64,000 nt of DNA from Oligoflexia bacterium (GCA_963758495.1 CAVWVI010000005.1:100809-164808); one strand, 5' to 3'; numbered from the stretch's first letter, positions 10,529-63,593 are shown. The notes: a model not told the origin generated them from the letters alone. Made by a program: numbers and translations.

Positions 10529-11584
10529 CTAGACTGCCAAACAAACCTCATATTTCTTTTCATTCTTTATCATCGAATAGATTCTACAGATCAGCTTTCT
10601 TGCTACGGCAACGATCGCCTTCTTCTTGCTCCCTGATTGCCTGGAGATCCGTTCAAAAAATAATTTCATTTTTTCGTCTTTGCCGACGAGATACCAGGAA
10701 GCCTGTATCAGGTACATTCTCAAAGTAGGATTCCCCTGACCTGTAATACGCCCTCGGTGTACGCTATCGCCAGAAGAATACTCAGATGGGGTGAGTCCGA
10801 AGAATGCCGCCACTTGCTTCTCATTGCTAAACCTTCCCCAATCGCCAATTTCATAGGTTAAAGACGCTGCAATGAGAGGGCCTATGCCCGGCACTGATTC
10901 GATGATTTGAAAATTCTTACTAAATCTACCTTCCTTGATTTTTAGATATTCGTTCTCCAGTTCTTTAAGCTGCTTATTTATCAATTCAATTTCTTCCAAA
11001 AACAATTTGATTGAGAGTTTCACCATCGAAGGCAGATTCATCTCAAGTATTGTGGCGGCAACCTGTTTACTGATGCCTCTGGTATTCAAATGAACACCGT
11101 TAAGCATGAGAAGCCCTTTTATTTGATTAATTGCCCTGGCTCTTTTAATGATAATTTGCTGCCTTGTGCGAAGTATTTGCCTGAGATTGAGTTGTTCCGG
11201 CGACGGAACGAATATTCCTTTCAATAGCCCTTTACTTAAAAAACTTGCCAATTTAAGACTATCGCGCCGATCTGTTTTTACCTTGTCGCCAGACATAATA
11301 GGCATCTTTGAAGGTGGGGTCACGATATTCTTGACTCCTATTGAATCCAGCTGATAGTGCAGATGAAACCCAGAAAATCCCGCCTCGTAAACCGAAAAAA
11401 TTTTCATATCCGCATATCGATGCAAAATCTTCCTGAGCTGCTCAAAATCTGACTTCAGCGTGAATCTCCCGATTGTTTGATCACAGTGAAGGAGGCAAAC
11501 ACTCCAGCTGGCTTTATGGACATCAATACCCACAAAAATGGGTTGTGCCAAATCTAGAGTTATTTTAGTATTGTGCTTCGCCAT
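10529..11584 (-). mobile_element. IS110-family DEDD transposase/recombinase
   Basis: GIDVHK, YEAG, KTDRRDS (DEDD), SVPGIG, EYSSG (catalytic Ser region), AVARKL. Confidence 0.95.
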
Positions 11585-45522: not shown

Positions 45523-46475
45523 GTGGGGGGTGCTTATAAAATTACCCGTGAAGAAGTTCTTTCAGGGGAAATTCTAAACGCCGATGAAACCCCTCATAAA
45601 ATGCTGGAGGGAGATCCGAAGAAGAACTGGGGGCTCTGGGGATTTTTAAGTATGGATCGAGGAGTCTACTTTGAAATCAGAGATACTCGTGCTGGAGAAG
45701 TTGCTTCTGCCGTATTAGTTGATTCTATCTGCAAGTATCTCATGAGTGATGCCTATAGCGGCTATGGGAAAGCTCTCAGAGAGGCAAACGAAATCCGTAA
45801 AAAGAAGGGTCTGCTACCCATCCAGTGTCTTTATTGCAATGCCCATTCGATTCGTAAATTTAAGGAGGCGAGAGAAGTTTTAAAACAACAAGACCTAGAG
45901 GACCCTGAATGTGAGTGGTTTGTAGCTCAGTACAAAATAATTTATGATCTTAATGAAGAGTCCAAAAATCTCCATCCTGAGGGGGTGATGGACCTCCGCA
46001 GGAAAATGCTCCCGATCTTTGAGGAGATGAAAAAGCGAGCAGGACAAATTCAAAATAGCTACTCTTCAAAGAGTAAGATGGGAGGGGCAATCTCATACCT
46101 TCTAGATTATTATGATGAATTAACTTTATTCACCACTCAATGGGATCTCCCCATAGACAACAATATTCTTGAGCGTCAATTAAGAAATCCAGTTGTTGGA
46201 AGAAAAACGTGGCTGGGCACACACTCTAAGCGTGGCGCACAAACTGCGGCAGTACTATTCACTCTTGTCGAAAGCTGTAAAATGATCGGAGTAAATCCCA
46301 GAGAATATTTTAAGGTCCTCGTTGAAGATCTCCACCAGGGTAAAGGTCCCTTCTCCCCTTACCAATTCAAGACGCGTCAATCTCAAGCTAAAGCAGCTTA
46401 AATCAGCCCCTTTTTAAAATTTCTATTATAAAAAATCCATTTTTTACTTCCATGTGTGCGCTGCCGACGATCTAC
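45523..46475 (+). mobile_element. IS66-family TnpC, 5'-truncated, with probable right end near 46475
   Basis: ADETP, SDAYSGY, CNAH..RKF, IDNN..ER..R, ESCK..GVNP..Y; N-terminal part and tnpA/B missing. Confidence 0.85.
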
Positions 46476-46880
46476 GAAAGAAAGCACGGGACGACCTGCC
46501 AAAAGCCACTCATTGTTTTTTTAGAAAACGAGGTCAGCACTCTCAAGCCTTTGCCAGCCTTATGCTACGGACGCGAGGAGGTGGCCTATCCAACAGTTAG
46601 GAAGGATGGATTTGTTCGCTTCGCCAACAAATATTACGCAGTGGCCGATGAGCACATAGGGAAAGACGTCGTGGTGATTGCCTCACCCACTCAGGTCTCC
46701 ATTTATGATCGCGGGAGACTATTGGAACTCTACACTCGAATGACAGGGAAAGAATCTACCCATGCAATCAAAGACCACCTCAAAAATGCGCAATTTCAGA
46801 GATGGGAGCACCCCGATTTCAAGTTAGGGATCACCTGAATTTCATCGTAGGGATCACCCCTCGGAGCGAAGCGACGATTG

Positions 46881-47645
46881 TTACTGCGTCTCTTTAAGTT
46901 GATCAAGTTTTTTTGCTTTTATTCGTCTATAACTCTCGCCAGTAATTTTTATCTGAACAGCCATCCCCTCAATTCGGTCAATGATTGCTTCTGAGAGAAC
47001 TGGATCTGGAAGAACCTCAGCCCAGTGTTCCAGGGGTAACTGAGTAGTGACAAGAGTGGATTTCCCATAGGATCTCTCTTCTAAGATCTCTCTCAAGTCT
47101 TCAGCCTCCAATGGATTAAATTTTCTAAGTCCAAAATCGTCAATAATGAGCAAGTCGGGCTTTGTGAGCTTTTCTTTGAATTTGAGATAGCTATGGGTAC
47201 TTCTCGCAAGGATTTGTTGCTCTAGGAATGTGCTTGCCGACAGGAAGATCACCGTTTTTCCCAACTGACATGCTCTGAGTCCAATCGCTTGGGATAGATA
47301 TGTTTTACCCACGCCAGTTTGCCCGATGAGGAGCAGTGGTCGGCCATCTTCGAGCCATTTCATAGAATGTAGTTCTTTTACCTGCGTTTTCGTAATACTT
47401 CTTTTGGCTGTGAAGTCAAAGTCTTCGAAGGATGCGGATCGCTTCAACTTGGAATTCTTGATTCGGCTCTCTATTTTCTTTTTGTTCCGATGGTCTGACT
47501 CTGCTTGAAGTAAGACATCTAAAAACTCTAAGTAACTCCACCCATCCTGAGTGCCATCTGTTAGGGTTTTCTCGAGTGTGTCTGCAATTCCATTTAACCT
47601 GAGCTCAGACAATAGTTGTCTGATTTGAGTTGGACTCATAATCAT
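46881..47645 (-). CDS. istB: IS21 helper ATPase (element B)
   Basis: GQTGVGKT, LLIIDDFG, AIIDRI, GESYR. Confidence 0.93.
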   Translation of the reverse strand: MIMSPTQIRQLLSELRLNGIADTLEKTLTDGTQDGWSYLEFLDVLLQAESDHRNKKKIESRIKNSKLKRSASFEDFDFTAKRSITKTQVKELHSMKWLEDGRPLLLIGQTGVGKTYLSQAIGLRACQLGKTVIFLSASTFLEQQILARSTHSYLKFKEKLTKPDLLIIDDFGLRKFNPLEAEDLREILEERSYGKSTLVTTQLPLEHWAEVLPDPVLSEAIIDRIEGMAVQIKITGESYRRIKAKKLDQLKETQ

Positions 47646-47676
47646 TATTCTCCTTATTTTATTGATTGCGGCAATA

Positions 47677-49188
47677 TTAGGTTGCTACCTCAGACTTCGC
47701 ATTTGCCTGGCGAAGCATGGGGTTTCCAGGCATTCTCTGGATATTAAAATCCTGAGCCTGAGAAAATTGGTGTTTCTTAAGACCATTGAGACATTCTCGG
47801 AAGTAGGTCACTCGGATTTTTTCAAAGCGTCTCATCTGCTGAATGGCATTTATAATTCGAGGTTCTGCCAATGCCCTTCCGGAGCTTTTGATCTCCTCCT
47901 GAGCAACCCTCAGAAGTCCCTGCACTCTTCTAATATTCCCAAGTGCATTTTCATTAAATAAGTCATCCACTAAAGACCTTAGATCTGAGTGAATAAATCT
48001 TGCTTGTGATAATAGATTCTGTGGCGTAGCTTCACGATATGCTTGTGAATTAGGAGGTAAATGATCATTTTGAATCACTCTTGAGGCATGTCTTCGGTGT
48101 CTGGCGTGGATGGCTAGTCTTTGATTTTCATAAAAAATCTCAACCTGATTCTGAGTTAACTTAACTCGTACCTCTTTTCCCCGATAAAGGTATGGCACTG
48201 AGTAAAATACTTGATCCACAGAAATGGTGGAATCAGGGTGGACTCTTGCTTTTGTCCATTCAATGGATTCAAATGGAGAATCAGGGAGAGCCTTCAGAGC
48301 CTTCTTTTCAAGAAGCTGCCAGCGCTCCAATCGAGAAGTTTTAAATCGTGTATGACTTCTTTCATTGATCTGCTTCACCACTTCAGAAAGTGCTCTGTTA
48401 ATTTCATCAAGAGAGAAGAACGTGTGTCGTCTATAGTTCCACCTGAATAGTCTCATGATCAATTTCACAGCTCCTTCGACGATAGGCTTGTCCTTTGGGC
48501 GTCGGGGCCTTGCTGGAACAATTGCTGTTCCGTAATGAGTTGCCAATTCAGTATAAGCTGGATTCAGATCTGGATCATATCGGTGGGCTTTAATTACACC
48601 GTTCTTAAGGCAATCACAGACTGTAACGGCTGGGACACCCTGGAAGTGAGTGTACATTTTTTGATGGGCCAATAGCCAGTTTCGACTCTTTTCATCTTCA
48701 GAGGCCCAGGCAAACAAATACTGACTGAAAGCCAGTGCCCCGATAAAAATATGCGCATAATGAATCTCACCTTGAGAATTGATCCATTCAATCTTATCTC
48801 CGGCATAGTCCACCTCACATTGACTTCCGGGAGCGAAGTCCCTTAAGGTCACTGTTGCTTTGAGTAGGTGGGGAAACTTACGCTGCAGAGTCTTCCAGAA
48901 ATTCGAATAACTCGTGACTGGGCTTGCCTTCTCCTCCCATATTCTTAGGAGTTCAAATCCTAGGGAAATTTCTTTAGCTATCTCTATCCAGTCTACAAGT
49001 TCAATCCAAAGTGGGCTTTTAGCTGGACTCGCTAATTCTTCATTAGGTTGATCCATTTGGGTTCTAAGATCTGCAACTAGTGTCCTCCGACACTTCAGAG
49101 CTCGCGCTATAAACTTGTTTGATTGTCCCTCTCTAATGAGTCTTTTAATATCCTCTACACGCGCCACAGTTAATCCTTTCCGGGCCAT
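47677..49188 (-). CDS. istA: IS21 transposase (element B)
   Basis: EVDYAG, VCDCLK, PKDKPIVEGAV, FYSVP. Confidence 0.93.
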   Translation of the reverse strand: MARKGLTVARVEDIKRLIREGQSNKFIARALKCRRTLVADLRTQMDQPNEELASPAKSPLWIELVDWIEIAKEISLGFELLRIWEEKASPVTSYSNFWKTLQRKFPHLLKATVTLRDFAPGSQCEVDYAGDKIEWINSQGEIHYAHIFIGALAFSQYLFAWASEDEKSRNWLLAHQKMYTHFQGVPAVTVCDCLKNGVIKAHRYDPDLNPAYTELATHYGTAIVPARPRRPKDKPIVEGAVKLIMRLFRWNYRRHTFFSLDEINRALSEVVKQINERSHTRFKTSRLERWQLLEKKALKALPDSPFESIEWTKARVHPDSTISVDQVFYSVPYLYRGKEVRVKLTQNQVEIFYENQRLAIHARHRRHASRVIQNDHLPPNSQAYREATPQNLLSQARFIHSDLRSLVDDLFNENALGNIRRVQGLLRVAQEEIKSSGRALAEPRIINAIQQMRRFEKIRVTYFRECLNGLKKHQFSQAQDFNIQRMPGNPMLRQANAKSEVAT

Positions 49189-49753
49189 CAGTTCTCTCCT
49201 TTTTAATTGAAGAGGACTATACACCCGCCTGTTTTGGCGCTCCGAGGGGTGATCCCAATAGTGAAATCAGGGTGATCCCTACGATGAAATTGAGGTGATC
49301 CCTAACTTGAAATCGGGGTGATCCCTATAATGAAATTTTGCAAAAAGTCATGGCAAAAGCTTGAAGAGCAGAATAGAGGGCTGCTCTCACTAGCCAAAAA
49401 AATAGGGCAAAATACCGAAAAATTTGTTCGCGCAGCTCTCAGTCGTGGTGAGGGATTTGTCGATACTCGGGTCGTCTGGGGACTTCTATCGCTTGATAAA
49501 ACTTATACGAAAGAAGCAATTGATCAGGCCGCAGGTATAGCCCTTGAAATGAACACCTTATCTTCGCGCCTAGTAGAGCGTCTGATTAAACTGACACTGC
49601 AGAAATCAAAAATTAAGGAAAGCCAAAACCCACCGCAACATCGGAGGGAAGTAGCTACCGCAAAGTTCATTCGCCCTATGAGTGTTTATACTGAACAACT
49701 CAAGAGCGGCATGAAATCAACCAGCACCTAAACTCAAGAAAGGGTAAATAAAA

Positions 49754-50515
49754 ATGGATATCGAAACTATACGTTCACAACTTAAGAGTCTCAAGCTAGG
49801 CATCGCCGCAACAGAAATTGACACCGTACTGGCCAACCAAAAGAAGGCCGTGTCGTTGGGATGGCTGGGAGAACTCCTAGAGAGAGAGCTGGATGCTAGA
49901 AAAGAAAATGCTCTCAATTCCAGGATAAAAGCAGCAAAATTCCCAGAAGCTACAACTATTGATGGATTCGATTTTGCTTTTAATCCCGAGATTGATGAGA
50001 CAGCGATCCGCCGTCTTGCAACTCTAGGGTTCATCCAGCAAAACCGAATCGCTCTTTTCTTGGGAAACGCTGGAACCGGGAAAACCCATCTAGCTATCGC
50101 TATCGGGATACTCGCGGCACGGACAGGGCATCGGGTTTACTGTAGCTCAGCTAAGCGACTCCAGGCCCAGATCATCGAGGCAAAAATGAAAAATTCCCTA
50201 GGCGATCTATTCAAAAAAATTCTCTCCTCAAAACTCTGGATCATCGATGATTGGGGCGTGGTCCATCATCCGAGAGAAGTTGCTGAGGAGATCTTTGATT
50301 TAATGGATCGCCGTAAGCACACCTCGGCCATGATTCTCACAAGTAATCGCGACGTTGAAGAGTGGCCTCAGGTCTTTGACGACCCTGTCGTCTCGAATAT
50401 CACGATCGATCGAATCTTCGATCGAGCTGAAACAGTGATCTTCAAGGGGGAAAGCTACAGGCTGAAAGGAAAAATACAAATCAAGGATGTTGACCTCGAA
50501 CCTACGAGGCATTAA
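49754..50515 (+). CDS. istB: IS21 helper ATPase (element A)
   Basis: GNAGTGKT, WIIDDWG, TIDRI, GESYR. Confidence 0.93.
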   Translation: MDIETIRSQLKSLKLGIAATEIDTVLANQKKAVSLGWLGELLERELDARKENALNSRIKAAKFPEATTIDGFDFAFNPEIDETAIRRLATLGFIQQNRIALFLGNAGTGKTHLAIAIGILAARTGHRVYCSSAKRLQAQIIEAKMKNSLGDLFKKILSSKLWIIDDWGVVHHPREVAEEIFDLMDRRKHTSAMILTSNRDVEEWPQVFDDPVVSNITIDRIFDRAETVIFKGESYRLKGKIQIKDVDLEPTRH

Positions 50516-50872
50516 AAGAAATGCTGAACCGGGGGGTCCAGATTGCTGGGACGAAGAGGGGTTCAATTACCTGGGACGGGACAGTTAGAGTAAAAGCCGC
50601 CTAAGATGCTTGACTTAAACCTAAAAAAAGACTGAGATAAATCGCGAATTTTGATATTTTTAAATTTTCCACAATAACTATTTCCTTAAAAAGCTAGGCT
50701 CGCAATTTTAGCAAGCGATGTAAATTATGCAGTAATTATTTAAAAAATCAATGTAAAAAGTCATCTGAATTAAGTTTAATGAAAATCCTTCGTACTGATG
50801 GCAATAAATTCCCAAAAATGCCTTACTACATTAGTTCTCGGAGAGCCACAGCAGGTCTACTCACGACCAATA

Positions 50873-51208
50873 TTAGCTGGCTTTCTTGTGCTGCTCTTGC
50901 TTAGACGTGAGGAGTCTACTTGCGGCTTTTCGCACGCGTATTGCCTGCTTTTCATACTGGCTCTTGCCATTTGGAAACAACAAAGACTCCGGTGAAATGC
51001 CCAGTGCAGCTCCAATGAGCGTTGCGCGCTTTACTCCGATTTCAAGCTTGTTATTTTCTATGGCACTTAAATTAGACTCTGGGATTCCAGTTAGCCGTGA
51101 TAACTCTTTCAGAGTTATACTAAAGTTATTGCGAAACGCCTTAATCGTACTTCCTGTAGTGCTATCTGTTGGGAGAAAATCCATTAAATCTTTTAACTTT
51201 TTCTCCAT
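50873..51208 (-). CDS. XRE-HTH antitoxin (HigA-like)
   Basis: TLKELSRLTGIPESNLSAIENNK HTH, downstream of a RelE-like toxin. Confidence 0.8.
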   Translation of the reverse strand: MEKKLKDLMDFLPTDSTTGSTIKAFRNNFSITLKELSRLTGIPESNLSAIENNKLEIGVKRATLIGAALGISPESLLFPNGKSQYEKQAIRVRKAASRLLTSKQEQHKKAS

Positions 51209-51211
51209 ATG

Positions 51212-51526
51212 TTACTCCTTTTTCTTATAATTATGGTCTTTAGTAATTCGTACTATAATAACAGTCACAACTTGATCCTCAATTCGATAGATAATCCGAC
51301 CTTTGTAACTAAAGCTGGATGATCTATAGCCTTCCCATTCTCCATATAAAGGATGATCGGCCCAAATGTCCGGTCTTTTTAATAAAGCTTCCGGTCCACC
51401 TTCTATAACAATTCTTCGCCACTCCTTGATTACTTCAAGGTCATCGCGGGTCAGGATTTTTCTCTGAAAGACCTCCGCAGCCTTATCTTCAACTTTTACT
51501 TGCCAGAGGCCTGAACCAAGTTTCAT
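51212..51526 (-). CDS. RelE/YafQ/HigB-family type II toxin
   Basis: DHPLYGEWEGYRS, RIIYRI; toxin-first order. Confidence 0.82.
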   Translation of the reverse strand: MKLGSGLWQVKVEDKAAEVFQRKILTRDDLEVIKEWRRIVIEGGPEALLKRPDIWADHPLYGEWEGYRSSSFSYKGRIIYRIEDQVVTVIIVRITKDHNYKKKE

Positions 51527-51580
51527 CTTACTAAAAAGAGTAACTTATTATTATTAGTAAGTCAAGGTTTATAGGGTATT

Positions 51581-51751
51581 ATGAGACTTCGGTATCAGTT
51601 ACTAAATCCATTTGATTTATCAAAAGGTTTAGAAAAGAAGCTGGAAGAGTTCTTTTATTTAGTTAAGAGAAAGAAGCTCTGGCAAGTTGCCTAAGGATTA
51701 TAAGTCATTATTCCGGTGAGCTTTTCCCATAAGTCAATACGCACGCGAACA
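51581..51751 (+). mobile_element. 3' remnant of a transposase related to 51841-53031, plus right end
   Basis: MRLRYQLLNPFDLSKGLEKKLEEFF.. matches SLNPFKLAEGMELKLSQFY; followed by cggtgagcttttcccataagtcaatacg..aca. Confidence 0.6.
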
Positions 51752-51840
51752 AAAACATTCAATAATATTAGTTATATACCTTCGTATCAGACAATAAATA
51801 GCTGTCACCAAGGAGCGAAGCGTTAAATAGAGTAAGTTTA

Positions 51841-53031
51841 TCATGCTACCTCCTTGGCTGTTTTAATCTGTCTAATCCGTTCATAGAATTGGGAGAGTTT
51901 GAGCTCCATACCTTCAGCTAACTTAAATGGATTAAGTGATTCCTTTTCTGCTTTTAGAAGGCTCTTTTGTTCGTCTGAGAGGTATTTGCAAGTCATAAGT
52001 CTATCATAGGGGGTCTGAGGTGCTTCGAACTTTTTCATGATTTTAGATCCTATTCGGATTTTTTCTTTTAGTTTTTGAGAAGGAAGAAAAAAATTATGAA
52101 GAGGGTTCCAATACTCGGTATAAATTTCATTCATAAGCCCAACTAAGGTCACATCTTCCAATCGATCATAACCAAAGAGCTGACGAACATGAGTGTAATT
52201 TTTCTGCTCTACGTATGCGTTGTCATTCTTTCTATAGGGCCGAGAACGGGTAAAGGTAATTGACTTTCGTCCATAATCCGAGCTCATATAGTTTACAATT
52301 GGATTATTTAGGAATTCACTCCCAGAGTCCGTATTTACTGCTAATAATTCAAAGGGAAGCCTCTTCCTAATATCAATAAATGCATCGCGGACATCTAAGC
52401 CTTTTTTTGAAGGAAGTGCGCGAGTTTCTGTCCAAGTGGAAGCTATGTCTGTCAGTGTTAAAGTACTCAGAAATGGCCCAGCTGCTGACGATCCGCAGTG
52501 TGAAACTGTATCAGCTTGGGTAAATCCTGGGCGATCTACTTTGTAATCTAGGGTATTGATTGGAACGCTGTTTCTAATTGCTCGAATTCCAGAAGTGGTA
52601 GTGGAAAGGCCACGATTAACTTTATCCTTGAGGCGTAGAATAGCGATCATACGCTCTAAGGTCCCTTTGCTCATGAGTTCAAGCTTCATTCTTAACTCTA
52701 TTGTAAAATCAGGATGCTCGTAACTTGGGAGCCAGTCCTTAAGTGCTGCTTTCATCCGTTCAGCAGAAATGCGCTCCATTCGAATCCATAGGGTCTTAAT
52801 ATGGGGTAGGAATATCTGGGGGTCATACTCTAGCGGCCTGCCTCGTCCATCGGAACCCAGTTTTGCCTCTCTTTCTAAGGATTTACGATTTAAGTAGCGA
52901 ATAATTGTTTTGCGGTCTTTTCCAGTAATGAGGATCGCGTCGCTCAGTAGCTGAGTTTTTCTACCTTTGCCTGCATCCCAGTATGTTGTTTTTAAAGCGA
53001 TGATGTATTCTAAGTAAGCCTGGTGACTCAT
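51841..53031 (-). mobile_element. DDE (integrase-core) transposase, ISNCY/IS481-like
   Basis: QADTVSHCG, NTDSGSEF, RSRPYRKNDNAYVEQKN; RBS before ATG 53031; repeated end motifs at 53088-53180. Confidence 0.88.
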
Positions 53032-53249
53032 TTGAATCGTCCTCCTTGACGATAGAAATTTAAGTAGTTCAGATGACTTAGATTCTATCACGGTGACGAT
53101 TTTTGAAGTTGCCAGGCACTTCCGCCAAATCCCTACTTCAACCTTCAGTGACGGTATTTTTGCGGCGATTCGGATAACCATAAGATACTAAAAAAACGTC
53201 GAAGCGAGTTTGCTAATTAATTAACAATAGTGCATTAATGTGATCCACT

Positions 53250-55688
53250 ATGAACCGTAATGAATTTATTCTATTTTCAGCTCTATTTCTTGCAGGATCT
53301 CCTTCCCTGGGTCTGGCTCAAGATCATTTAAGTGACCTACAAAAGGCCTTAAAATCTCAAGATAGAGAGCTTGTACAGGCTTTCCTACAATCATTAAGCC
53401 TTGAAGATCCAGAAACCCAGGCAATGCTCTCCAGAGCAGATGAAGACGGAAGATCTCCTCTCATTTCGGCTATTCGAGAAGGGCTGGGTTTTCCAATAAT
53501 CCGCCGCCTTTTGAGCTTGGGTGCAGACGTGAATCAAGCTGATCGAGAAGGTAAAACCGCTTTAATTTATGCGGCAGAGAAAGGACATATGGGACTCGTG
53601 CAGGAGCTTCTCAATAAAGGCGCTAAGGTCGATCATGTAGATAGCTTTGGGTGGACGGCTTTAGGACAGGCACTAGTAGCAACAGCCAATGAACAAGATC
53701 AGTTTAAAGTGCTACAGCTTTTTCTAAAATCAGGTGCCAGTCTGAATAATTCTTTTCCTTCTGATTCTCAGGCGTATTCGAATACTTCGATTCATAACCA
53801 GCTTCAGGGGCGAACGATCCTAACATGGGCAATTGAATCTAAATCAATGCGATTGACAAGTTTAATTCTTCGTTCTCTAAAGAAGCAACAAGCCTGGGTG
53901 AACCAAAGGGATGGTCGCGGCAGAACACCCTTAATCCAGGCGGTGGAATCAGGCCAGTTTCAACTTGTAGAAGATCTTGTAAGTGACGGAGCCGATGCAA
54001 CGATTCAAGACAATCTCGGTTGGACAGCGTTGAGCAAGCTTTTGGCGCAAGCCCGGAACCCTAAAGCATCTCAGCAGAGCTTTGGGCAAGAACAGATGAA
54101 ATGGATGAAGGTATTTTTAGACCAAGGTAAGAAAGCCGATCAAATCTTTCCAGGAACAGAAGCAGCCTACTTAAATAAAAAGGAATTCCAGAAATTTCAA
54201 GGCCGTTCAATACTTGCATGGGCCGTAGAGAATGATCGCGCAGATGTGATTGCACTTTTGCTTGAGCAGGGTACAGACCTAGGCCCCTTGGAGCCACTCC
54301 TGATGTCCTCGATTGAACGGGGTAATCTAGAAATGTTGGCACTCGTGGTGGGCCAGGGTGTTGATCTTTGTCCGAAGCAGCCGTTAAATTTCAGCGGTCA
54401 CACACCTTTGACCTTGGCAGCAGAAAAGGGAAAAGTTGAGGTTGTGAAGTTCATATTGAATTCTCTCTCGCACGCAGAAGATGCTTCGATATCTCTGAAC
54501 GAGTGCGATCTAAATGGGATTGGTAAAGATGGAAGGACTGCATTGGGTTGGGCCGGAGCGAAGGCAAATTTAAATGTGGCTCAATTGATTATTCAAAAGG
54601 GAGAAGAGCAATTTTTTGGAGTATCGGAGTTAAGAAATATGCTGACAGCCGCGGGGACACCACAACTCAAAGGTAAATGGATCGAGTACTTCTCTGTTAT
54701 CCAGTTATCAACTCGCTTAACAGATCTCTTGAATATAAAATCAGAGAGCGTTATCGCGTTTGAAGGTGAACAATTAGAAAATCAAAACCCTGGATTTCTT
54801 CCCAGCGTAGGTGCTCTCAAATCCTTGATGAATCAAAAAGCCAAGGAGCTTTACTACCAGGAACAAGAGCAAGAAATTCATAACCAGTCTCAAAGTGCGA
54901 TGAAGATAGTTGAACCGAGAACAGATGAAGTGGGTGCCTCTAGTTCAAGCAATCTAAGCAAAATCTCACCTCATTCAGAAATAGCTTCGTGTATGGTTTG
55001 TTTGGATACGATCATGGTTGGAGATGAGCAGCCCTTTGGACCAGCCGGATGTTCGTGTAATATGATTTGTTCGAATTCTGAATGTACTGAATATTTCTGT
55101 AGCACGATAGTCAATCGTGATGGCGAAGACGTGAGTCGTTGTCCAGGCTGTAAAAGTCCTGTTTATTCAAAGTATTTAGTAGAGCATGGTGTAAGTGAAG
55201 AAGATGCAAAAAAGGTCCGCAATCGATGCGTCGATATTCTAAATTCACAGCAATTAGGTTGGAGATTTTGTCCGACAACGGGTTGTGCTGGAGGACGGGT
55301 AGTCCAACCTCACGAAAAATCTGCGTATTACTCTTGTATTCTGTGTGGCCATGAAGGTTGCATTAAGTGTGGAAGTGAGCACAAGGGTGATTGTGCGAAT
55401 TATGAAAAAGAAATGAAAGAATTTGAAAACCTCTTACGTTTAGGAGCAATGGCTCCCCCGAAGAATAGACCTGCCGACCCAAATCACCCAGATTATATGA
55501 AGGGCCGTTTTCGCCCTTGTTATCACTGTGGAGTGATTACAGAGCGAGATGGAGGATGCTCACATATAACCTGTAAGAGATGCCGTGCTGAATGGGAATG
55601 GAACTGGGGGCCTTATGAAAGAGGTAAATTTACTATGACAGACCAGCTTCCAATGAAGTTTAAGCCGCTTAAGGCGCCACACTGGTAG
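53250..55688 (+). CDS. Secreted ankyrin-repeat + RBR (RING1-IBR-RING2) E3 ubiquitin ligase-like protein
   Basis: Signal peptide; multiple ankyrin repeats (GRSPL, GKTAL, GRTPL, GHTPL); RING1 CMVC..CSC..C..C..CPGC; IBR WRFCPTTGC..CILC..CIKC..H..C; RING2 CYHC..RDGGCSHITCKRC. Confidence 0.85.
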   Translation: MNRNEFILFSALFLAGSPSLGLAQDHLSDLQKALKSQDRELVQAFLQSLSLEDPETQAMLSRADEDGRSPLISAIREGLGFPIIRRLLSLGADVNQADREGKTALIYAAEKGHMGLVQELLNKGAKVDHVDSFGWTALGQALVATANEQDQFKVLQLFLKSGASLNNSFPSDSQAYSNTSIHNQLQGRTILTWAIESKSMRLTSLILRSLKKQQAWVNQRDGRGRTPLIQAVESGQFQLVEDLVSDGADATIQDNLGWTALSKLLAQARNPKASQQSFGQEQMKWMKVFLDQGKKADQIFPGTEAAYLNKKEFQKFQGRSILAWAVENDRADVIALLLEQGTDLGPLEPLLMSSIERGNLEMLALVVGQGVDLCPKQPLNFSGHTPLTLAAEKGKVEVVKFILNSLSHAEDASISLNECDLNGIGKDGRTALGWAGAKANLNVAQLIIQKGEEQFFGVSELRNMLTAAGTPQLKGKWIEYFSVIQLSTRLTDLLNIKSESVIAFEGEQLENQNPGFLPSVGALKSLMNQKAKELYYQEQEQEIHNQSQSAMKIVEPRTDEVGASSSSNLSKISPHSEIASCMVCLDTIMVGDEQPFGPAGCSCNMICSNSECTEYFCSTIVNRDGEDVSRCPGCKSPVYSKYLVEHGVSEEDAKKVRNRCVDILNSQQLGWRFCPTTGCAGGRVVQPHEKSAYYSCILCGHEGCIKCGSEHKGDCANYEKEMKEFENLLRLGAMAPPKNRPADPNHPDYMKGRFRPCYHCGVITERDGGCSHITCKRCRAEWEWNWGPYERGKFTMTDQLPMKFKPLKAPHW

Positions 55689-55724
55689 AAGTTAAAATTT
55701 AATAAACGAAGTATTAGAGGATTT

Positions 55725-56966
55725 ATGAAATTAATTAGGAATAAAAAAGTGAATAAAATTCGATTGTTTTTAGTGATTATAGCAGGTTTGGCTCTTCAAT
55801 CCCTACCGGCAATAGCGGTAGAAAAGGTGTATTTCAAAACCCTAGATGGGGAAGCATTTGCCTGCGACAAGGCTAATTTAGAATTCCATATTGATCCAGA
55901 GGGAAGGCTGTCTGAAATTTGTAATTTTTCGTCAGAAATGGAATCTGGAGATGGGGAATCAGAGAGTACGGCGCTTGAATTAGACGTGAATGGAAAGCTA
56001 TTTAAAAAGTATATTTTAGATATCATAAGACACGGAAAAGTTTCTTTTAAAAATAACGCCGATGCAGAAAATACTTTGACCATTTGCGAAAATCTCGGTT
56101 TAACATTAGCGGAAGAGCACGTTTGTAAATTTCTCAAGAGAAGGCCGCGCAAAAAGAACCAAGAATCTGACGTTCAAATGGCAGGCAGCAATCGTCATTC
56201 TACTCTGGCTAGCCTGGAATGCCCAGAAGGTTACGTAATGGTTCCTGGTAATGAATCTTATAATACTCCGGGTCAGGGTGAAGACTTCTGCGTGATGAAG
56301 TACGCAGCCTCTAACGGTGAAAACGGCAAAGCTGTTTCACGGCAAGGCGCAGCCCCGTGGGTAAATATTAATCAGGCTAATGCAGCGGCAGCCTGTTCAG
56401 CGAATGGAGAAGGCTACCATCTAATCACAAATGCTGAATGGATGACAATTGCCCGAGACATTGAAGCAAATGAAGTAAACTGGAATAATGGAGCAGGACC
56501 TGTTGGAACTGGAACATTGTCTAGAGGAAATAGCAATTCTAATGCAGCACTAATCCCAGGTACAGATGAGAGTTCAGTAGCTACTGATTGGACCCATAGA
56601 AGAACTCATATCTTGAGTACGGGAGAGATGATTTGGGATATGGCCGGAAATGTATGGCAATGGGTAGCAGATAATTTAACAACAAGAAGAGATAATTGGA
56701 AAGAATTTACTGATGTAGGTACGTTTCCATTACAGAGCGACATTAGGTCACTGTATGGACCTAGTGGTTTGTACGACTCAAATCACGGAACGGGAAAGAT
56801 TTACATGTACGACGCAGGAGCCGTGCTTCGCGGGGGCGCCTGGAGCCACGGTACTGGCGCCGGCGTCTTTGCTGCGACTCTGGACAACTCCGCTACGAGC
56901 ACGTACCCGGAACCTCGGATTTCGTTGCGCCGTGTCGGCTTCGGGTGCTCGCTAGCCATGGGTTAA
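55725..56966 (+). CDS. Secreted BTB/POZ + C-type lectin (FGE-sulfatase fold) protein, DGR-type target 1 (+1 indel in variable region)
   Basis: Signal peptide; LDVNGKLFKKYILDIIRHG..CENLGL (KCTD-type BTB); FCVMKY, LITNAEW, DMAGNVWQW, RGGAW; GFRC shifted to another frame. Confidence 0.8.
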   Translation: MKLIRNKKVNKIRLFLVIIAGLALQSLPAIAVEKVYFKTLDGEAFACDKANLEFHIDPEGRLSEICNFSSEMESGDGESESTALELDVNGKLFKKYILDIIRHGKVSFKNNADAENTLTICENLGLTLAEEHVCKFLKRRPRKKNQESDVQMAGSNRHSTLASLECPEGYVMVPGNESYNTPGQGEDFCVMKYAASNGENGKAVSRQGAAPWVNINQANAAAACSANGEGYHLITNAEWMTIARDIEANEVNWNNGAGPVGTGTLSRGNSNSNAALIPGTDESSVATDWTHRRTHILSTGEMIWDMAGNVWQWVADNLTTRRDNWKEFTDVGTFPLQSDIRSLYGPSGLYDSNHGTGKIYMYDAGAVLRGGAWSHGTGAGVFAATLDNSATSTYPEPRISLRRVGFGCSLAMG

Positions 56967-56999
56967 TTAGCCCTTGGTCATTGTCTTGTAGTTGTTTTT
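56814..56999 (+). repeat. DGR-like variable region 1 with conserved 3' flank
   Basis: Near-identical to 58241-58429 except at codon positions 1-2 of NNC/NNT codons. Confidence 0.85.
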
Positions 57000-57005
57000 A
57001 GTGTT

Positions 57006-57022
57006 CCTGCCCGGAGGGCAGG
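57006..57022 (+). other. GC-rich hairpin with GGA loop, 3' of VR1
   Basis: cctgccc-gga-gggcagg. Confidence 0.75.
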
Positions 57023-57163
57023 CGGACAAAAAAAATTACAAAATAGCTGGAAATTTCTGGAAATAGCTGGAAATGGGCTCGTAAAACGAATGTGTCAGAT
57101 TTCGAAATTTTAGCGATACGAATTGAAATTAAAAATGAAAGAAATTGGAAAAGTAGGTTTGTT

Positions 57164-58384
57164 ATGAAGTCTTTGAGAACTAGAGCAGTTAAGTTAATCA
57201 TGTTGAGTGGGTTTATTGTAAGCGGATTGTCTGCTTTTTCTTCGTCACTGCTGGCAGTGGAAAAAGTTTATTTTAGTACTTCGGACGGCGAGAAGTTTTG
57301 GTGTGATCGAGATAATTTAGAATTCCACATGGACCCAAATGGGAAATTATCCGAACTATGCAATTTCATGCTTGAGGATGGAGAACATGCTGGCCAGTCT
57401 GAAGCGACATCCCATGAATTAGATTTCAACGGCAGGTTATTCAAAGAATATATTTTAGATCTATTAAGAAGGGGTGAAGTATCATTCAAAGATAAGGCGG
57501 ATGCCGAGAACACTTTGAGGATCTGTGAAAACCTAGGTCTTCCGGCGGCGGAGGAATATATTTGTAAGGTTCTAAAGAGAAAACCTCGCAGAGAATTGAA
57601 ATCCCCTGATTCCAAAGACACCCGTGTCGCAAACGCACGATTACAAAATATCGATTGTCCAGAGGGCTATGTGATGGTTCCAGGCAATGAATCCTATAAC
57701 ACCCCGGGGCAAGGTGAAGACTTCTGCGTGATGAAGTACGCGGCCTCAAATTCAGGAAACAGAACGGCTGTATCAATACAAGGTGCAGCCCCATGGGTAA
57801 ATATTAATCGGGCTGATGCCGCGACTGCATGTTTAGCGAATGGCGAAGGCTACCATTTAATCACAAATGCTGAGTGGATGACGATTGCCCGAGACATTGA
57901 AGCAAATGAAGTAAACTGGAATAATGGAGCAGGACCTGTTGGAACTGGAACATTGTCTAGAGGAAATAGCAATTCTAATGCGGCACTAGCGCCAGGTACA
58001 GATGAGAGTTCAGTAGCTACTAATTGGATTAATAGAAGAACTCATACCTTGAGTACGGGAGAGATGATTTGGGACATGGCCGGAAATGTATGGCAATGGG
58101 TATCTGATTCTCCCACTCTAGGTGGACAGTCTCAATGGCAAGAAATGTCAATTTTAGCCGATGCGAACCATCGATTACAGTTTGGACCTAGTGGAGGTTT
58201 TACTTCAGCTCAGGGTGTTGGCAAAATCGTCCCCGGTTCCGCAGGAGCCGTGCTTCGCGGGGGCGCCTGGAGCAGCGGTTCTGCTGGCGCCGGCGTCTTT
58301 GCTGCGTATCTGAGCCACTCCGCTACGTACACGAGCCGGTACTTCGGATTTCGTTGCGCCGTGTCGGCTTCGGGTGCTCGCTAG
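57164..58384 (+). CDS. Secreted BTB/POZ + C-type lectin protein, DGR-type target 2 (start probably 57164)
   Basis: Paralog of 55725; LDFNGRLFKEYILDLLRRG..CENLGL; ends RGGAW..FGFRCAV. Confidence 0.85.
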   Translation: MKSLRTRAVKLIMLSGFIVSGLSAFSSSLLAVEKVYFSTSDGEKFWCDRDNLEFHMDPNGKLSELCNFMLEDGEHAGQSEATSHELDFNGRLFKEYILDLLRRGEVSFKDKADAENTLRICENLGLPAAEEYICKVLKRKPRRELKSPDSKDTRVANARLQNIDCPEGYVMVPGNESYNTPGQGEDFCVMKYAASNSGNRTAVSIQGAAPWVNINRADAATACLANGEGYHLITNAEWMTIARDIEANEVNWNNGAGPVGTGTLSRGNSNSNAALAPGTDESSVATNWINRRTHTLSTGEMIWDMAGNVWQWVSDSPTLGGQSQWQEMSILADANHRLQFGPSGGFTSAQGVGKIVPGSAGAVLRGGAWSSGSAGAGVFAAYLSHSATYTSRYFGFRCAVSASGAR

Positions 58385-58429
58385 CCCTGGGTTAATTAGC
58401 CCTTGGTCATTGTCTTGTAGTTGTTTTTA
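58241..58429 (+). repeat. DGR-like variable region 2 with conserved 3' flank
   Basis: Aligns to 56814-56999. Confidence 0.85.
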
Positions 58430-58436
58430 AGGATTC

Positions 58437-58451
58437 CTGCCCGAAGGGCAG
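58437..58451 (+). other. GC-rich hairpin with GAA loop, 3' of VR2
   Basis: ctgccc-gaa-gggcag. Confidence 0.72.
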
Positions 58452-58869
58452 TCGGTTAAAAAAATTTACAAGATTGTTAGAAATTCCTGGAAGTAGCTAG
58501 AAATAGCTGGAAGTTGAAATAAACGTCAAAAACCGTCTGTATTATTTCTAATTTAAACGCTCACTGAATTAAAAACTCCGTAGGAGTGATTTTAAACCGT
58601 ACTTGAGCGCAGGTTAAAAACTAGATTCGGACCCCCTAGAGAAAGTTTCCTTCCTCTAGGGTCAGCCCTAGCCTATTGCCCGAAGTGCCTTGGGGAAAAA
58701 ATTTAAATATAGGCTTCGGATATCCTCAGACGACTGACTTGAAGCCCTTGGAGGCGGATTTGGCCGGACGGGGGCGGGATAGGGCAGGATTGGAGACTGG
58801 GAAATCCCACTTTCTTTTTCCTATAGGCTATGCATCTGCAATCAATTGGAAGCGCAGTGATTGAAAAAA

Positions 58870-61104: not shown

Positions 61105-62715
61105 TCATGCTTTCCTCGTGTTTTTGGAAGTGATCTTGCGAAAAGCATGAGAGCGCAACACGTTGCCTCCAGAGTCAAAAGAGCGTTGCTTTAAAGCCCT
61201 CCCTGCTCCATTTTCCAGAAAATGGGAAATCACGAAGCTTTTGACGACTGGACTGTCCCATCCCATTTTCTTCCAGGAACTTCGGGTAAAGGGCAACCAG
61301 ACTTTGGATGACCTTTTCAGCAAAGCCACTCAACTCCGTTTGGACATGGGTAGATACTTAAGAGCGCCGAGTGGCGGATTCCATTTTGGTGGCCCATTCG
61401 TCCTGTTCCTGCTTTTCTCTCTCCTGCGCTTCTCTTTGTTTTTTCTCGTACTCTTGCTTGGCGGCCTCCTTTTCGGCTCTTTGGGCTTGGGCCTCTTTCA
61501 GGGCTTGTTCTCTTGAGCCAATTCTGGTACCGATTGAGATTCATCTCCCAATGGCCGTTGATCCAGACCATGGGGCTGTGGATTTTTCCTTCCTCGCCAG
61601 CCTTCCCGTTTCCATGGGCTTCGAGAAAGCTAACGACTGTTCCGCAAAGGTCGAAGAAGGGCTTTCCATGAGTGATAAAGAGTTCCTGAAAAATCTCTCT
61701 CTCTTTTTTGAGTTTCCAAATTTTCCGGATTTTTCGAAAGTCTCCCAGCGTGCACTCATGTCGTCAGGAAAGTCGGTTGCGTAAGAGAGAGATTCTTTCT
61801 TAGATTCTTGAATAAGATTCTTAGGCGGCTCGATTTCTGAATGATTTCCGACGCTTGATGCGCTGCTTGATGGGTTCGTTTGCCCCAGGTCAACCTGGGG
61901 TGATTTACCCTTTTTGTCACAGGGCGCATTACCCTGGGGTATGATTACCCTGGGTTTGTTTAACGTGGGTTCGATTACCCTTTCCGTGACTTCAAAATAG
62001 CTGTGATTCAGCGCCCAGAAATTCACTGTTTTGTGCGAGATTTTTTGAAGAACTGCTTTATTCAGGAGCTTCCTGAGAGCTGCGCGAAGATTGGAGCCGT
62101 CCATTCCTGTTTCGAGTTCAAACTCCTCGATGGTGATGGGGGCGAACATTTTTGGACTGACCTGAGCAATGGTCCGATCGTAGACGGTAAGGACGAGGGC
62201 GATGTCTACGAGCTTCAATCTGTGCTTGGTAGGGGCTCGTAAGACTCTCGACAGGCCATGCGCGAAGCGGCCCCAGCCTTCGGCGAGGTGTTGGGTTACC
62301 AGATTCGTTTGGGCATCGTGAGTCAGTAGACCCCCTTGGGTCACAGCTCCCTCGATCATCTTCTCTCTGCGCCGCTTGTGACGGCCAGCTAAGTGATCGT
62401 TCAAGTCGAAGCCTTGAGATTTTTCTGGGCCATTGGTCGGCTCTGCATGGGTAGAATCACTCTGAGTGGCATTACTCTGAGTATGTTTACCCTGGGTTAG
62501 ATCTACGTGGGGAACTTCAACCTGGGTACAATTACCCTGAGTTAAGTTACCCTGAGTTTGTTTACTCCAGAGCCCGCTGCTTTCGATCGGTGCCGAAGTC
62601 CCTGCCGGATCTTGGGGTGGGAGGGAGGAATGAAGGTCTGAGTCTTCGGAAGGATCAGGGGTTTGCCGGGTTGAATATTGCCAATCGCATTTCGTAGAAT
62701 AGATTTTCCGCTCAT
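61105..62715 (-). CDS. Putative replication initiator (HTH), apparently broken by several frameshifts
   Basis: ATG 62715 coupled to the parA stop with RBS AAGGAGG; central YDRT..ITIEEFELETGMDGSNLRAALRKL HTH; frames shift at a GA microsatellite near 61700 and elsewhere. Confidence 0.5.
62457..62557. repeat. 15-bp-period repeats (TTACCCTGRGT consensus), iteron-like; further copies at 61885-61981
   Basis: Units starting at 62457, 62472, 62487, 62517, 62532, 62547. Confidence 0.7.
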
Positions 62716-63593
62716 GATTGACCTCCTTGATTCGAATTGAGTCGCGTTGTGATTTCTCCAGCCAGCTTGAGATAATCTTCTGCACCCGAACTCATTGGAG
62801 CGTGATGGAAGATTGTGCGACCGAGGGCAGGGGCTTCCCGGAGTTTGACGGAGCGCCTGATCTTTGTCTGAAAGACTTGGTCACCGAAGCTTTCCTGGAG
62901 ACTGTCGAACACATCGGAAGTGATCAGGGTGTTATCGCAGAGGGTGAGGAGAAAGCCGAGAACTGCCACAGTTAGATTTGTTCCCGCTTGAATTTCCCCG
63001 ATCTCAGCGAGAAGAGATTTGATTCCCTGCAAAGCAAAAACGCCAGAATCTACAGGCACGATGACCCAGTCAGCTGCATTCAAAACGGAATTCATCAAAG
63101 GGCCGAAAGTAGGCGGTGAATCCAGCAAAACATAGGCATAGCGATCCCTGAGTTTTCTCAGACGTTGCGCCAGTCTCAACTCGCTGTTGGTCATGCCGAC
63201 CATTTCGCGTTCGAGTTGGGACAGTAGAGGAGTGGCAGGAATCAAGTCGACTGATTGACCTTTGTAAATGGCTCCGTCATCTGCGAGAGAGCGGTCCTTG
63301 ATCAGATCAGAAATGGAGACGTGTACCGTTTCCAGCTTGATCCCTGACGCCTGGGTGGCGTTGCCTTGTGGGTCGAAGTCGACGATGAGGATTCGATTTT
63401 CTGTTTGAGTGTGTTTTGGATTTTGTAAGGTGAGAGCGTGGGCCAGATTAACCGTGGTTGTGGTTTTTCCGACACCGCCTTTTTGATTTGCGATTGCAAT
63501 GATTGGGTGGGTGCTGCTTTGCGGTTTCATTTTTTTCCCTATGGCCTTTGCTTGTTCGGTAACGCCATTTGTTGCTCTATTTGTGTTTGACAA
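62712..63593 (-). CDS. parA: ParA/Soj-family ATPase
   Basis: NQKGGVGKTTT, DFDPQGNAT, LDSPP, IRRSVKLREAP. Confidence 0.93.
   Translation of the reverse strand: MSNTNRATNGVTEQAKAIGKKMKPQSSTHPIIAIANQKGGVGKTTTTVNLAHALTLQNPKHTQTENRILIVDFDPQGNATQASGIKLETVHVSISDLIKDRSLADDGAIYKGQSVDLIPATPLLSQLEREMVGMTNSELRLAQRLRKLRDRYAYVLLDSPPTFGPLMNSVLNAADWVIVPVDSGVFALQGIKSLLAEIGEIQAGTNLTVAVLGFLLTLCDNTLITSDVFDSLQESFGDQVFQTKIRRSVKLREAPALGRTIFHHAPMSSGAEDYLKLAGEITTRLNSNQGGQS

Follow-up and report, generated by a model that had tools for sequence, protein, structure and literature searches.

A predicted exported ubiquitin-ligase module pairing an ankyrin-RBR protein with BTB-lectin proteins in a Bdellovibrionota genome

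Results

Three co-oriented genes with export-type N-termini

We analyzed a 64-kb stretch of DNA (CAVWVI010000005.1:100809-164808, hereafter the window) from contig C5 of the five-contig, 92% complete assembly of a soil bacterium of the predatory Bdellovibrio group (phylum Bdellovibrionota; genome G000), where three adjacent genes are predicted to encode a protein with ankyrin repeats and a RING1-IBR-RING2 (RING-between-RING, RBR) ubiquitin-ligase-like module (g1), followed by two paralogs in which a BTB-fold domain precedes a C-type-lectin (CLec) fold domain (g2 and g3). All coordinates use window numbering. The three open reading frames (ORFs) lie on the + strand (g1, 53250-55688, 812 aa; g2, 55725-56966, 413 aa; g3, 57092-58384), and each begins with a basic stretch, then a hydrophobic stretch, then an A-x-A-like end (GLAQ/D, AIA/VEK, and LLA/VEK, respectively), which, read by eye, resemble Sec signal peptides. 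An earlier note on this DNA, made by a model, had described three co-oriented genes with signal-peptide-like starts, the first two 36 nt apart, and both statements agree with our analysis. Each of the three frames is long and has significant domain matches, and we therefore consider this arrangement real and not a chance pattern. Alignment with g2 and relatives indicates that the true start of g3 is most likely the ATG at 57164. The features of the locus are as follows.

53250..55688, + strand: g1, ankyrin-RBR ligase-like, secreted-type, 812 aa (ORF, Pfam Ank and IBR, RBR profile, fold)
53250..53318, + strand: g1 signal-peptide-like N-terminus, residues 1-23, ending GLAQ/D (translation read by eye)
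53430..54630, + strand: g1 ankyrin-repeat region, about residues 60-460 (Pfam Ank_2, Ank, and Ank_4, several stretches; kept in paralogs)
54972..55685, + strand: g1 RING1-IBR-RING2 module, residues 575-812, with RING1 from C581 to C634, IBR from C674 to C715, and RING2 with C757, C760, C775, and C778 (alignments, PDB profile, fold)
55557..55559, + strand: g1 Cys770 codon, predicted catalytic cysteine (parkin alignment; invariant in 13 of 13 family sequences)
55689..55724, + strand: g1-g2 spacer, 36 nt, with an AGAGGA ribosome-binding-like site 5 nt ahead of the ATG
55725..56966, + strand: g2, BTB-CLec, secreted-type, 413 aa; final ~20 codons out of frame relative to relatives
55818..56144, + strand: g2 BTB-fold domain, residues 32-140 (63% identical to the modelled g3 domain; fold)
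56202..56963, + strand: g2 FGE-sulfatase / C-type-lectin-fold domain (Pfam PF03781; PDB profile, top match TvpA, 2y3c)
56838..56916, + strand: g2 variable region, 79 nt
57007..57021, + strand: GC-rich hairpin CTGCCC-GGA-GGGCAG, conserved 3′ flank of g2
57031..57082, + strand: 10-nt repeat, three to four copies, CTGGAAAT-like, behind g2
57164..58384, + strand: g3, BTB-CLec, secreted-type, 406 aa from ATG 57164; frame open from GTG 57092
57257..57583, + strand: g3 BTB-fold domain, residues 32-140 (AlphaFold2 model, Foldseek, VIA)
57656..58381, + strand: g3 FGE-sulfatase / C-type-lectin-fold domain (Pfam, PDB profile)
58265..58345, + strand: g3 variable region, 81 nt, with an adenine-mutagenesis footprint
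58437..58451, + strand: GC-rich hairpin CTGCCC-GAA-GGGCAG, conserved 3′ flank of g3
58471..58522, + strand: 10-nt repeats behind g3, copies of those behind g2

Behind each BTB-CLec gene, the CTGGAAAT-like 10-nt repeats follow the hairpin and a run of A, and such repeats also occur in a metagenome relative (contig L036). Eukaryotic contamination was considered as a source of these genes and rejected, since they sit among bacterial genes and insertion sequences (IS) on large contigs.

The g1 protein ends in an RBR module with a predicted catalytic cysteine

Pfam ankyrin families match g1 at E values of 1e-42 to 1e-17, and the IBR-type families score 26.9 bits against a cut-off of 27 (IBR_2), 22.5 against 27 (IBR_1), and 20.4 against 24.3 (IBR). 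The final 262 residues of g1 match parkin in the PDB at E 1e-5, and a profile built from 13 family sequences matches parkin (6.8e-11), ARIH2 (1e-10), HOIL-1 (3.5e-10), and ARIH1 (4e-6), with the matches to whole RBR modules spanning positions ~18-232 of 255, i.e., RING1 through RING2. An AlphaFold2 model made with the 13-member family alignment has a mean pLDDT of 80, and a Foldseek search with this model returned at least 46 matches at E <= 0.001, of which the 46 listed are RBR ligases (HOIL-1, ARIH2, parkin, HHARI, HOIP, and RNF216); their high root-mean-square deviation (rmsd) is to be expected, as the RBR is a flexible three-domain module. In the ESM Atlas, g1 lies next to clusters of eukaryotic IBR/RBR proteins (score 0.95, 201 shared features). 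The Pfam ankyrin matches, the RBR profile, and the predicted fold together bear out the earlier description of g1 as an ankyrin-RBR ligase-like protein.

Examination of the zinc ligands showed that RING1 has the eight ligands of a cross-brace, in a pattern that includes C581-x2-C584, C601-x-C603, and C631-x2-C634, all invariant or nearly so in the 13 sequences, with a Cys in g1 at the position of the canonical His. The canonical RING1 ligand pattern has a His at this position. The IBR follows the C6HC arrangement, with C674, C679, C696, C699, C707, H711, and C715 conserved. Cys770, located within the RING2 motif R-P-C-Y-H-C-G-V-I-T-E-R-D-G-G-C, aligns with the Cys of parkin ‘NGGC’, which we take to be the catalytic C431, and is invariant in all 13 sequences. 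The motif that follows reads E-W-E-W-N-W-G in g1 and E-W-C-W-N-C-G in parkin, i.e., both parkin cysteines are replaced, and no second RING2 zinc site was found in any of the 13 family sequences, which have no further Cys in this region and whose sole His there belongs to a conserved P-H-[FWY] end. Because both parkin-type cysteines are replaced and no later Cys follows, RING2 apparently binds one zinc, not two. The earlier note had also invoked Ariadne-type RBR ligases, which cooperate with cullin-RING ligases. We find that g1 is not of this type: it ends 34 residues after C778 and lacks the C-terminal Ariadne domain, which is autoinhibitory and cooperates with neddylated cullins in that subfamily, the PDB matches to ARIH1 and ARIH2 stop inside the RBR part, and parkin, ARIH2, and HOIL-1 are matched about equally.

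The g2 and g3 proteins join a BTB fold to a C-type-lectin fold

The two BTB-CLec proteins are 64% identical. Pfam FGE-sulfatase (PF03781) scores over its cut-off in both (E 6.5e-7 and 1e-9), and the best PDB match of the BTB-CLec family profile is TvpA of Treponema denticola (2y3c, 3.5e-13), ahead of true formylglycine-generating enzymes (FGE). The C-type-lectin / FGE-sulfatase fold is therefore identified by Pfam and by the PDB profile, in agreement with the earlier note; the AlphaFold2 model of this half is poor (pLDDT < 45).

The AlphaFold2 model of g3 (19-row alignment) is confident only in the N-terminal domain (pLDDT about 80-88). Foldseek with this domain gave KCTD5, KCTD16, KCTD9, and KCTD17 as the best rows (E about 1e-4 to 2e-3), and BTB-only KCTD chains aligned at TMt 0.66-0.73 and rmsd 3.5-4.6 over 102-109 columns. 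VIA, a structure search independent of Foldseek that covered 48,161 chains, returned 35 chains at Z >= 8 (10.5 to 8), of which those listed are BTB-fold domains (BTB/POZ, KCTD, and Skp1), headed by gigaxonin (10.5), KCTD10 (10.5), KBTBD2 (10.4), KCTD17 (10.4), and KCTD9 (10.3). BTB structures complexed with Cul3 were matched as well, i.e., KCTD7-Cul3 (8i79, Z 9.7) and vaccinia A55-Cul3 (6i2m, Z 9.6). The BTB subtype is not fixed by VIA, because rows within one Z unit are tied; the short core of the g3 model, with no N-terminal extension, resembles the KCTD/T1 form. KCTD and T1 BTB domains are obligate oligomers. The N-terminal BTB/POZ domain claimed by the earlier note is thus upheld by predicted structure only.

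Sequence searches with the same domain were silent or narrow. No Pfam BTB or BTB_2 match was present in g2 or g3 at E <= 0.1, the N-terminal 110 residues had no match to any Pfam family at that threshold and none to a PDB sequence, and neither phmmer nor the family profile found a BTB chain in the PDB. The nearest ESM Atlas cluster is BTB/POZ (score 0.91, 128 shared features), which we treat as a lead only. An exhaustive phmmer search of 1.84 billion representatives with the N-terminal domain found only 20 relatives at E <= 0.001, all with hydrophobic N-termini; the partner fused to the domain in these proteins is the CLec type of g2 and g3, a second type of FGE domain, or a set of ankyrin repeats.

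The lectin-fold C-termini carry an adenine-mutagenesis footprint

At the DNA level, g2 and g3 form a mosaic, in which a 95% identical CLec core is followed by a very divergent loop region, then by scattered differences, and then by a near-identical 3′ flank that extends well beyond the stop codon. We compared the variable region (VR) of g2, g3, and the metagenome relative on contig L036 over 81 nt, from GCCTGGAGC until just ahead of GGATTTCG. None of the 16 variable sites falls at codon position 3 (position 1 has 10 and position 2 has 6), and an A is present in at least one copy at 16 of 16. The upstream CLec core served as a control: between g3 and the L036 copy it has 37 differing sites, with 23 of the 37 at codon position 3. 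The VR pattern, as read from these three copies, is that of adenine mutagenesis, as would be expected with AAC-type template codons and only adenines mutated. This is the C-terminal VR typical of diversity-generating retroelements (DGRs), with variation consistent with template adenines, and the earlier claim of a DGR signature in these C-termini stands on these 16 sites at codon positions 1 and 2. The hairpins behind the VRs were considered as DGR target-recognition elements, an idea that we dropped, as they lie ~90 nt beyond the VR.

The same note had gone further in calling the adaptors DGR-diversified. The mutagenesis footprint in the VR supports this for the past, and the diversifier itself (template repeat (TR), DGR reverse transcriptase (RT), and Avd) is missing from the assembly. 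A blastn search at word size 7 with both 3′ ends against the genome returned only paralog VRs and a remnant, and a whole-genome self-comparison for A-biased repeat pairs returned only hexamer tandem repeats. RVT_1 matches five proteins of the genome, 437-579 aa long and in one case broken by a stop codon, which are group II intron-like by motif reading. As a positive control, we applied our approach to 77 metagenome loci encoding CLec relatives, and it detected A-biased TR/VR pairs in 10 of them. Next to the pair, 9 of those 10 also encode an RT containing Y-x-D-D and [ILV]-G-x3-S-Q, and matches of these nine RTs to G000 were limited to the same five RVT_1 loci. An A-free 21-mer from the VR had 0 matches in viral contigs. 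Since no diversifier is in the assembly, the VR variants are either frozen or written by an unassembled element; the g2 and g3 sequences point to DGR action as a historical footprint only.

A complete DGR was found in a related genome, G250 (contig C26, locus L143), with an Lcl_C-type target, a bAvd, and a 410-aa RT with I-G-N-L-S-S-Q and Y-M-D-D. Its TR (1109-1245) and VR (273-409) differ with 14 of 18 mismatches at adenines, and this TR is unrelated to the g2 and g3 VRs. In G000, C1:219363-223366 holds three secreted CLec/FGE paralogs with no BTB domain, each with a VR-like G-F-R-C-A end, the middle one apparently interrupted. The false candidates in our TR/VR scan were hexamer tandem-repeat tracts common to C3:655633-656342, C3:667594-668030, and C4:99609-99814.

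The g2 protein has lost the G-F-R-C-A end because an extra base in a CCC run (56906-56908), relative to g3, the L036 copy, and a contig from one sequencing run (X5), shifts the frame. Either a true mutation or an error of assembly may account for this frameshift. Nine public sequencing runs contained matching DNA, with shares of at most 0.15 of words, short contigs, and no RNA run among them; X1 and X2 yielded five pieces at least 99% alike, and X4 and X5 yielded relatives that differ partly on VR sites. We used contigs from these runs solely for one point, i.e., that one contig of a relative in X5 has one base missing at 56904.

The RBR and BTB-CLec genes are linked and have been multiplied

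Our survey by tblastn and locus reading identified five RBR genes in G000, namely g1 on C5, one on C2, one intact and one broken (with no ankyrin repeats) on C3, and a distant one on C1. The genome also contains six BTB-CLec genes or remnants, i.e., g2, g3, one on C2, one intact on C3, one truncated at 240 aa on C3, and an IS-flanked fragment on C4. In 4 of the 5 cases a BTB-CLec gene lies directly behind the RBR gene, with gaps of 36, 53, 98, and 71 nt, and the RBR parts of these linked loci are only 51-57% identical. Three of the pairs are intact, with full-length open frames and conserved zinc ligands. The same order is present in G250, a Bdellovibrionales metagenome-assembled genome of the same family and another genus (gap 9 nt, RBR 44% identical), and on the metagenome contig L036, where the RBR end is the same as P0008 (93% identical to g1) and the BTB-CLec C-terminus is intact. 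An RBR gene followed by a BTB-CLec gene was therefore observed six times, four times in G000, once in another genus, and once on a metagenome contig, so that the linkage proposed in the earlier note extends to relatives. The three genes under study are best explained as one instance of a two-gene module of which this genome has accumulated several, with the second gene present as one or two BTB-CLec copies.

The distribution of the module is narrow. Among 61 relatives, RBR genes were found only in G000 and G025, and among 401 genomes of the phylum only in four, all in one family (f1), namely G000 itself and 3 of 57 other genomes of this family, against 0 of 343 genomes of other families. Among the matches listed, the BTB domain occurs in only two of the 401, G000 and G250, both of which carry RBR genes; a BTB domain was counted only when the match covered profile positions 3-154, as the profile (322 positions) also held FGE columns, the sole match in 88 other genomes.

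Some RBR genes have no BTB-CLec neighbour. This holds for the distant gene on C1 of G000, for the gene at locus L035, and for all six of the G025 RBR genes that we examined, and the RBR-bearing genome G295 gave no BTB domain among the matches listed. These observations would fit two independent eukaryote-directed effectors that travel together, namely a stand-alone ligase that chooses its targets through its ankyrin repeats and a BTB-CLec adaptor that hijacks host cullin-3, with adjacency reflecting co-regulation and co-duplication of an effector islet. In such a scheme the BTB-CLec protein would be likened to chlamydial BTB-LRR (leucine-rich repeat) and poxviral BTB-kelch proteins. The fusion of the BTB domain to other partners (ankyrin repeats and the second FGE type) in metagenome proteins and the Cul3-complexed structures among the fold matches (8i79, Z 9.7; 6i2m, Z 9.6) point the same way, as does the proposal, in the portion of text consulted, that BTB-LRR families are effectors in Chlamydiae (PMC4209131). 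The adjacency has, however, outlasted divergence to 44-57% identity at six loci with gaps of 9-98 nt, and a BTB domain was never seen without an RBR gene in the 401 genomes searched (among the matches listed). We consider independent effectors unlikely, but with enough in their favour to be taken seriously.

Copies of the module are also decaying. Besides the g2 frameshift, C3 holds the broken RBR gene with the truncated BTB-CLec gene, and C4 holds the fragment described above. A chimeric remnant at C3:865189-865632 runs from a piece resembling the g1 linker (LNLKSE..FEGE..ENENS) straight into a VR-like end (..GVFAASLSNSASDSSADVGFRCAFSPQN), and is a sign of recombination among copies of the module. 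The broken copies on C3 and C4, this remnant, the g2 frameshift, and the position of the locus, with IS21, a further transposase of the DDE type, and a toxin-antitoxin-like pair on its flanks, could all be explained if the genes were recently acquired eukaryote-like cargo on IS-rich DNA whose function has been lost. We find this very improbable: three full-length pairs still have open frames with their zinc ligands conserved, a second genus has kept the pair, and the g2 frameshift in its CCC run may be an assembly error, given that one X5 contig is one base short at 56904.

In G025, contigs C176, C219, and C153 (loci L030-L032) encode at least six proteins that end in an RBR module, including a tandem run of three on a single contig. 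Toward the N-terminus these proteins are proline-rich or helical, with no clear ankyrin repeats. These genes are a separate expansion of the same bacterial RBR family.

Genome context

Searches of the genome for members of the ubiquitin, E2 (ubiquitin-conjugating enzyme), and cullin families gave nothing; they gave nothing in the control genomes either, which makes these blanks weak. With none of its own found, the module would need these factors from a host. Markers of type IV (VirB4) and type VI (VipB) secretion were not found in the genome, and type III secretion was not searched for.

These export results bear on a further explanation, under which the genes have no ubiquitin role: the BTB-CLec proteins would be extracellular or surface lectin-like binders with the BTB fold as an oligomerization stalk, and the RBR-like protein would be an envelope scaffold of zinc fingers and ankyrin repeats, or would act on prey. 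The Sec-type signals on all three proteins (read by eye), the missing type IV and type VI markers, and a RING2 that lacks one zinc site would all suit such a role, as would the other secreted CLec paralogs with no BTB domain in the genome. The closest solved relative of the CLec domain is TvpA, which we take to be a lipoprotein, and KCTD/T1 BTB domains are generally known as obligate oligomers. Against this, RING1, IBR, and the catalytic cysteine are kept across 13 sequences, down to 23% identity with the g1 RBR module, a degree of conservation that is hard to explain without catalysis, and the RBR and BTB folds, linked here, both come from the eukaryotic ubiquitin system. We therefore regard a purely surface or envelope function as improbable.

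A second protein in the genome, a secreted-type 453-aa protein encoded at C1:224057-225418 (L145:555-1916, - strand), combines ankyrin repeats, a RING domain, and an Lcl_C/DUF1566 domain. The RING families score over their cut-offs (zf-rbx1, 38.8 bits; zf-C3HC4, 34.9 bits; and zf-RING_2), and Lcl_C, at 28 bits, is under its cut-off of 34.9. Lcl_C is the domain type targeted by the G250 DGR, and thus the theme of a ligase element with a binding domain of a DGR-target type occurs twice in this genome, in different forms. The gene at C1:225415-226965 (L145:1913-3460, - strand), which overlaps the previous gene by 4 nt, encodes a 515-aa protein with a weak Pfam Anthrax_toxA match (PF03497, 26.8 bits against a cut-off of 25), and is possibly a further eukaryote-directed factor.

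Elsewhere in the window, a 1918-aa ORF at 2643-8399 had no Pfam match at E <= 1e-5. Mobile elements are dense at 45523-53181 and 10529-11584 (an IS66 fragment, two IS21 istA/istB sets, a DDE transposase, and IS110), and a small pair of helix-turn-helix and toxin-like genes is located at 50873-51526. The presence of ParA at 62712-63593 raised the idea that C5 is a plasmid, which was dropped.

Discussion

The linkage and predicted folds described above lead us to propose, tentatively, that these genes form an exported, eukaryote-directed ubiquitin-ligase module with a variable receptor. Our results support in part the reading given in the earlier note. Under this proposal, g1 and the BTB-CLec proteins would leave the bacterium by the Sec route and would act in the cytosol of a eukaryote, probably a protist of the soil that either feeds on the bacterium or serves as its host. 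By homology to parkin, ARIH, and HOIL-1, RING1 of g1 would bind a ubiquitin-charged host E2, and ubiquitin would pass to Cys770 in RING2 and from there to the substrate. The BTB-CLec protein would oligomerize through its KCTD-like BTB domain and hold targets in the variable pocket of its lectin fold, a pocket shaped by the DGR-type adenine mutagenesis whose footprint we observe, and so would serve as the substrate-choosing subunit, docked either on the ankyrin part of g1 or on host cullin-3. A complex prediction with g1 residues 24-812 and g2 BTB residues 31-150 (score 0.00, mark 0.32) counts neither for nor against binding.

Several points weigh against this proposal. The Pfam IBR matches of g1 are at or under their cut-offs, the BTB domain is invisible to sequence methods (Pfam, phmmer, and profile against the PDB), and the missing second RING2 zinc site in 13 of 13 family members makes ligase activity uncertain. 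The 92%-complete assembly contains no TR, DGR RT, or Avd that would serve the VRs of g2 and g3, and studied DGR variable proteins are generally known as surface or extracellular binders. The unpartnered RBR genes, the lack of a BTB match in G295, and the decaying copies described above all count here too. Sec signals alone do not bring proteins into a host cytosol, cysteine-rich zinc domains do poorly in the periplasm, and the type IV and type VI markers were not found. Lastly, nothing ties this bacterium to a eukaryotic host.

A more specific form of the proposal is that the BTB-CLec protein, with its pocket rewritten by a DGR, docks on the ankyrin arm of the secreted RBR protein, i.e., that the pair is a cullin-less analogue of the CRL3-ARIH (cullin-3 RING ligase with Ariadne) assembly. 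We offer this as speculation that is doubtful on present evidence. If it were true, host ubiquitination could be aimed at ever-changing eukaryotic proteins, and the module would amount to a natural library of degraders.

Bacterial mimics of E3 ligase components are known, partly from reviews, for the RING/U-box, HECT-like, NEL, F-box, and BTB types. Should g1 be active, it would extend this list by a third eukaryotic ligase class, reduced to a form whose RING2 holds one zinc and which would help to dissect RBR catalysis. A BTB adaptor with a DGR-type hypervariable fold beside a ligase would be the first link from targeted hypermutation to ubiquitin targeting, and would point to an unsuspected eukaryote-directed lifestyle in one family of the Bdellovibrionota, which are known as predators of bacteria.

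Comparison with known systems

With the eukaryotic RBR E3 ligases (parkin, ARIH1/ARIH2, HOIL-1, HOIP, and RNF216), g1 shares the RING1-IBR-RING2 order, the place of the catalytic cysteine, the fold, and the E-W-x-W-N-x-G motif behind that cysteine. It differs from them in being bacterial, in its Sec-type signal and N-terminal ankyrin repeats, in its RING1 Cys for His, in lacking the second RING2 zinc site, and in having no Ariadne, UBL/RING0, or LDD accessory domain. No bacterial RBR ligase was found in the literature searched, including the consulted portions of two papers on bacterial ubiquitin effectors (PMC13728172 and PMC8003559) and two evolutionary surveys (PMC11354881 and PMC4327156); large DGR or effector surveys could still list such architectures in their domain tables.

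Compared with KCTD BTB proteins and cullin-3 adaptors (KCTD5, 3drx; KCTD10, 5fta; 8i79; 6i2m), g3 has the same short BTB core of ~105 residues and the same order of secondary-structure elements (VIA Z 10.5-9.6, rmsd 2.4-3.5 over 93-101 residues), whereas identity is 8-24%, there is no Pfam BTB match, and the domain sits behind a signal peptide. With DGR variable proteins such as TvpA (2y3c), the g2/g3 family shares the fold, the C-terminal VR, the G-F-R-C-A end, and variation consistent with template adenines, and differs in having no cognate TR, RT, or Avd in the genome. Bordetella phage Mtd is likewise a CLec-fold DGR variable protein. An N-terminal BTB domain associated with DGRs was not found in the literature searched, with the same proviso on domain tables.

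The fusion of a further domain to a CLec domain has a parallel in the X-FGS effectors of NTP-dependent conflict systems, for which the TR may lie elsewhere in the genome (Kaur, Burroughs, Iyer, and Aravind 2020, PMC7159879). In the consulted part of that paper the syntax is the same, with the extra domain always N-terminal to the FGS (CLec) domain; those fusions belong to vWA-MoxR or STAND ternary systems of multicellular bacteria, and the terms BTB, IBR, and RBR are absent from that text.

A different parallel is offered by the ankyrin and F-box effectors, i.e., Legionella AnkB (PDB 5k35) and the Orientia Anks, which are adaptors to the host SCF complex. They resemble g1 in combining ankyrin repeats and a ubiquitin-ligase element within one eukaryote-directed bacterial protein. 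These effectors supply only the SCF adaptor, whereas g1 has its own predicted thioester-forming catalytic module.

Within the literature searched, we found no description of two features of the module, namely a bacterial RBR ligase and the fusion of a BTB adaptor to a variable domain of the DGR type. The nearest bacterial precedent is the BTB-LRR (PEX1) and F-box families of amoeba-associated Chlamydiae, which, in the consulted part of the source, were proposed to feed host proteins to the ubiquitin system, at a time when, of all bacteria, only Chlamydiae seemed to have BTB domains (Domman et al. 2014, PMC4209131). Both are bacterial systems with an N-terminal BTB domain, a C-terminal binding domain, and birth-and-death duplication. 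The chlamydial proteins, as that part describes them, have a Pfam-recognizable BTB domain, an LRR partner, and type III delivery, with no linked ligase gene, whereas the present module has a BTB domain recognizable by fold only, a DGR-type lectin-fold partner, a Sec-type signal, and an RBR gene upstream. The module would belong with the known eukaryote-like ubiquitin-ligase effectors.

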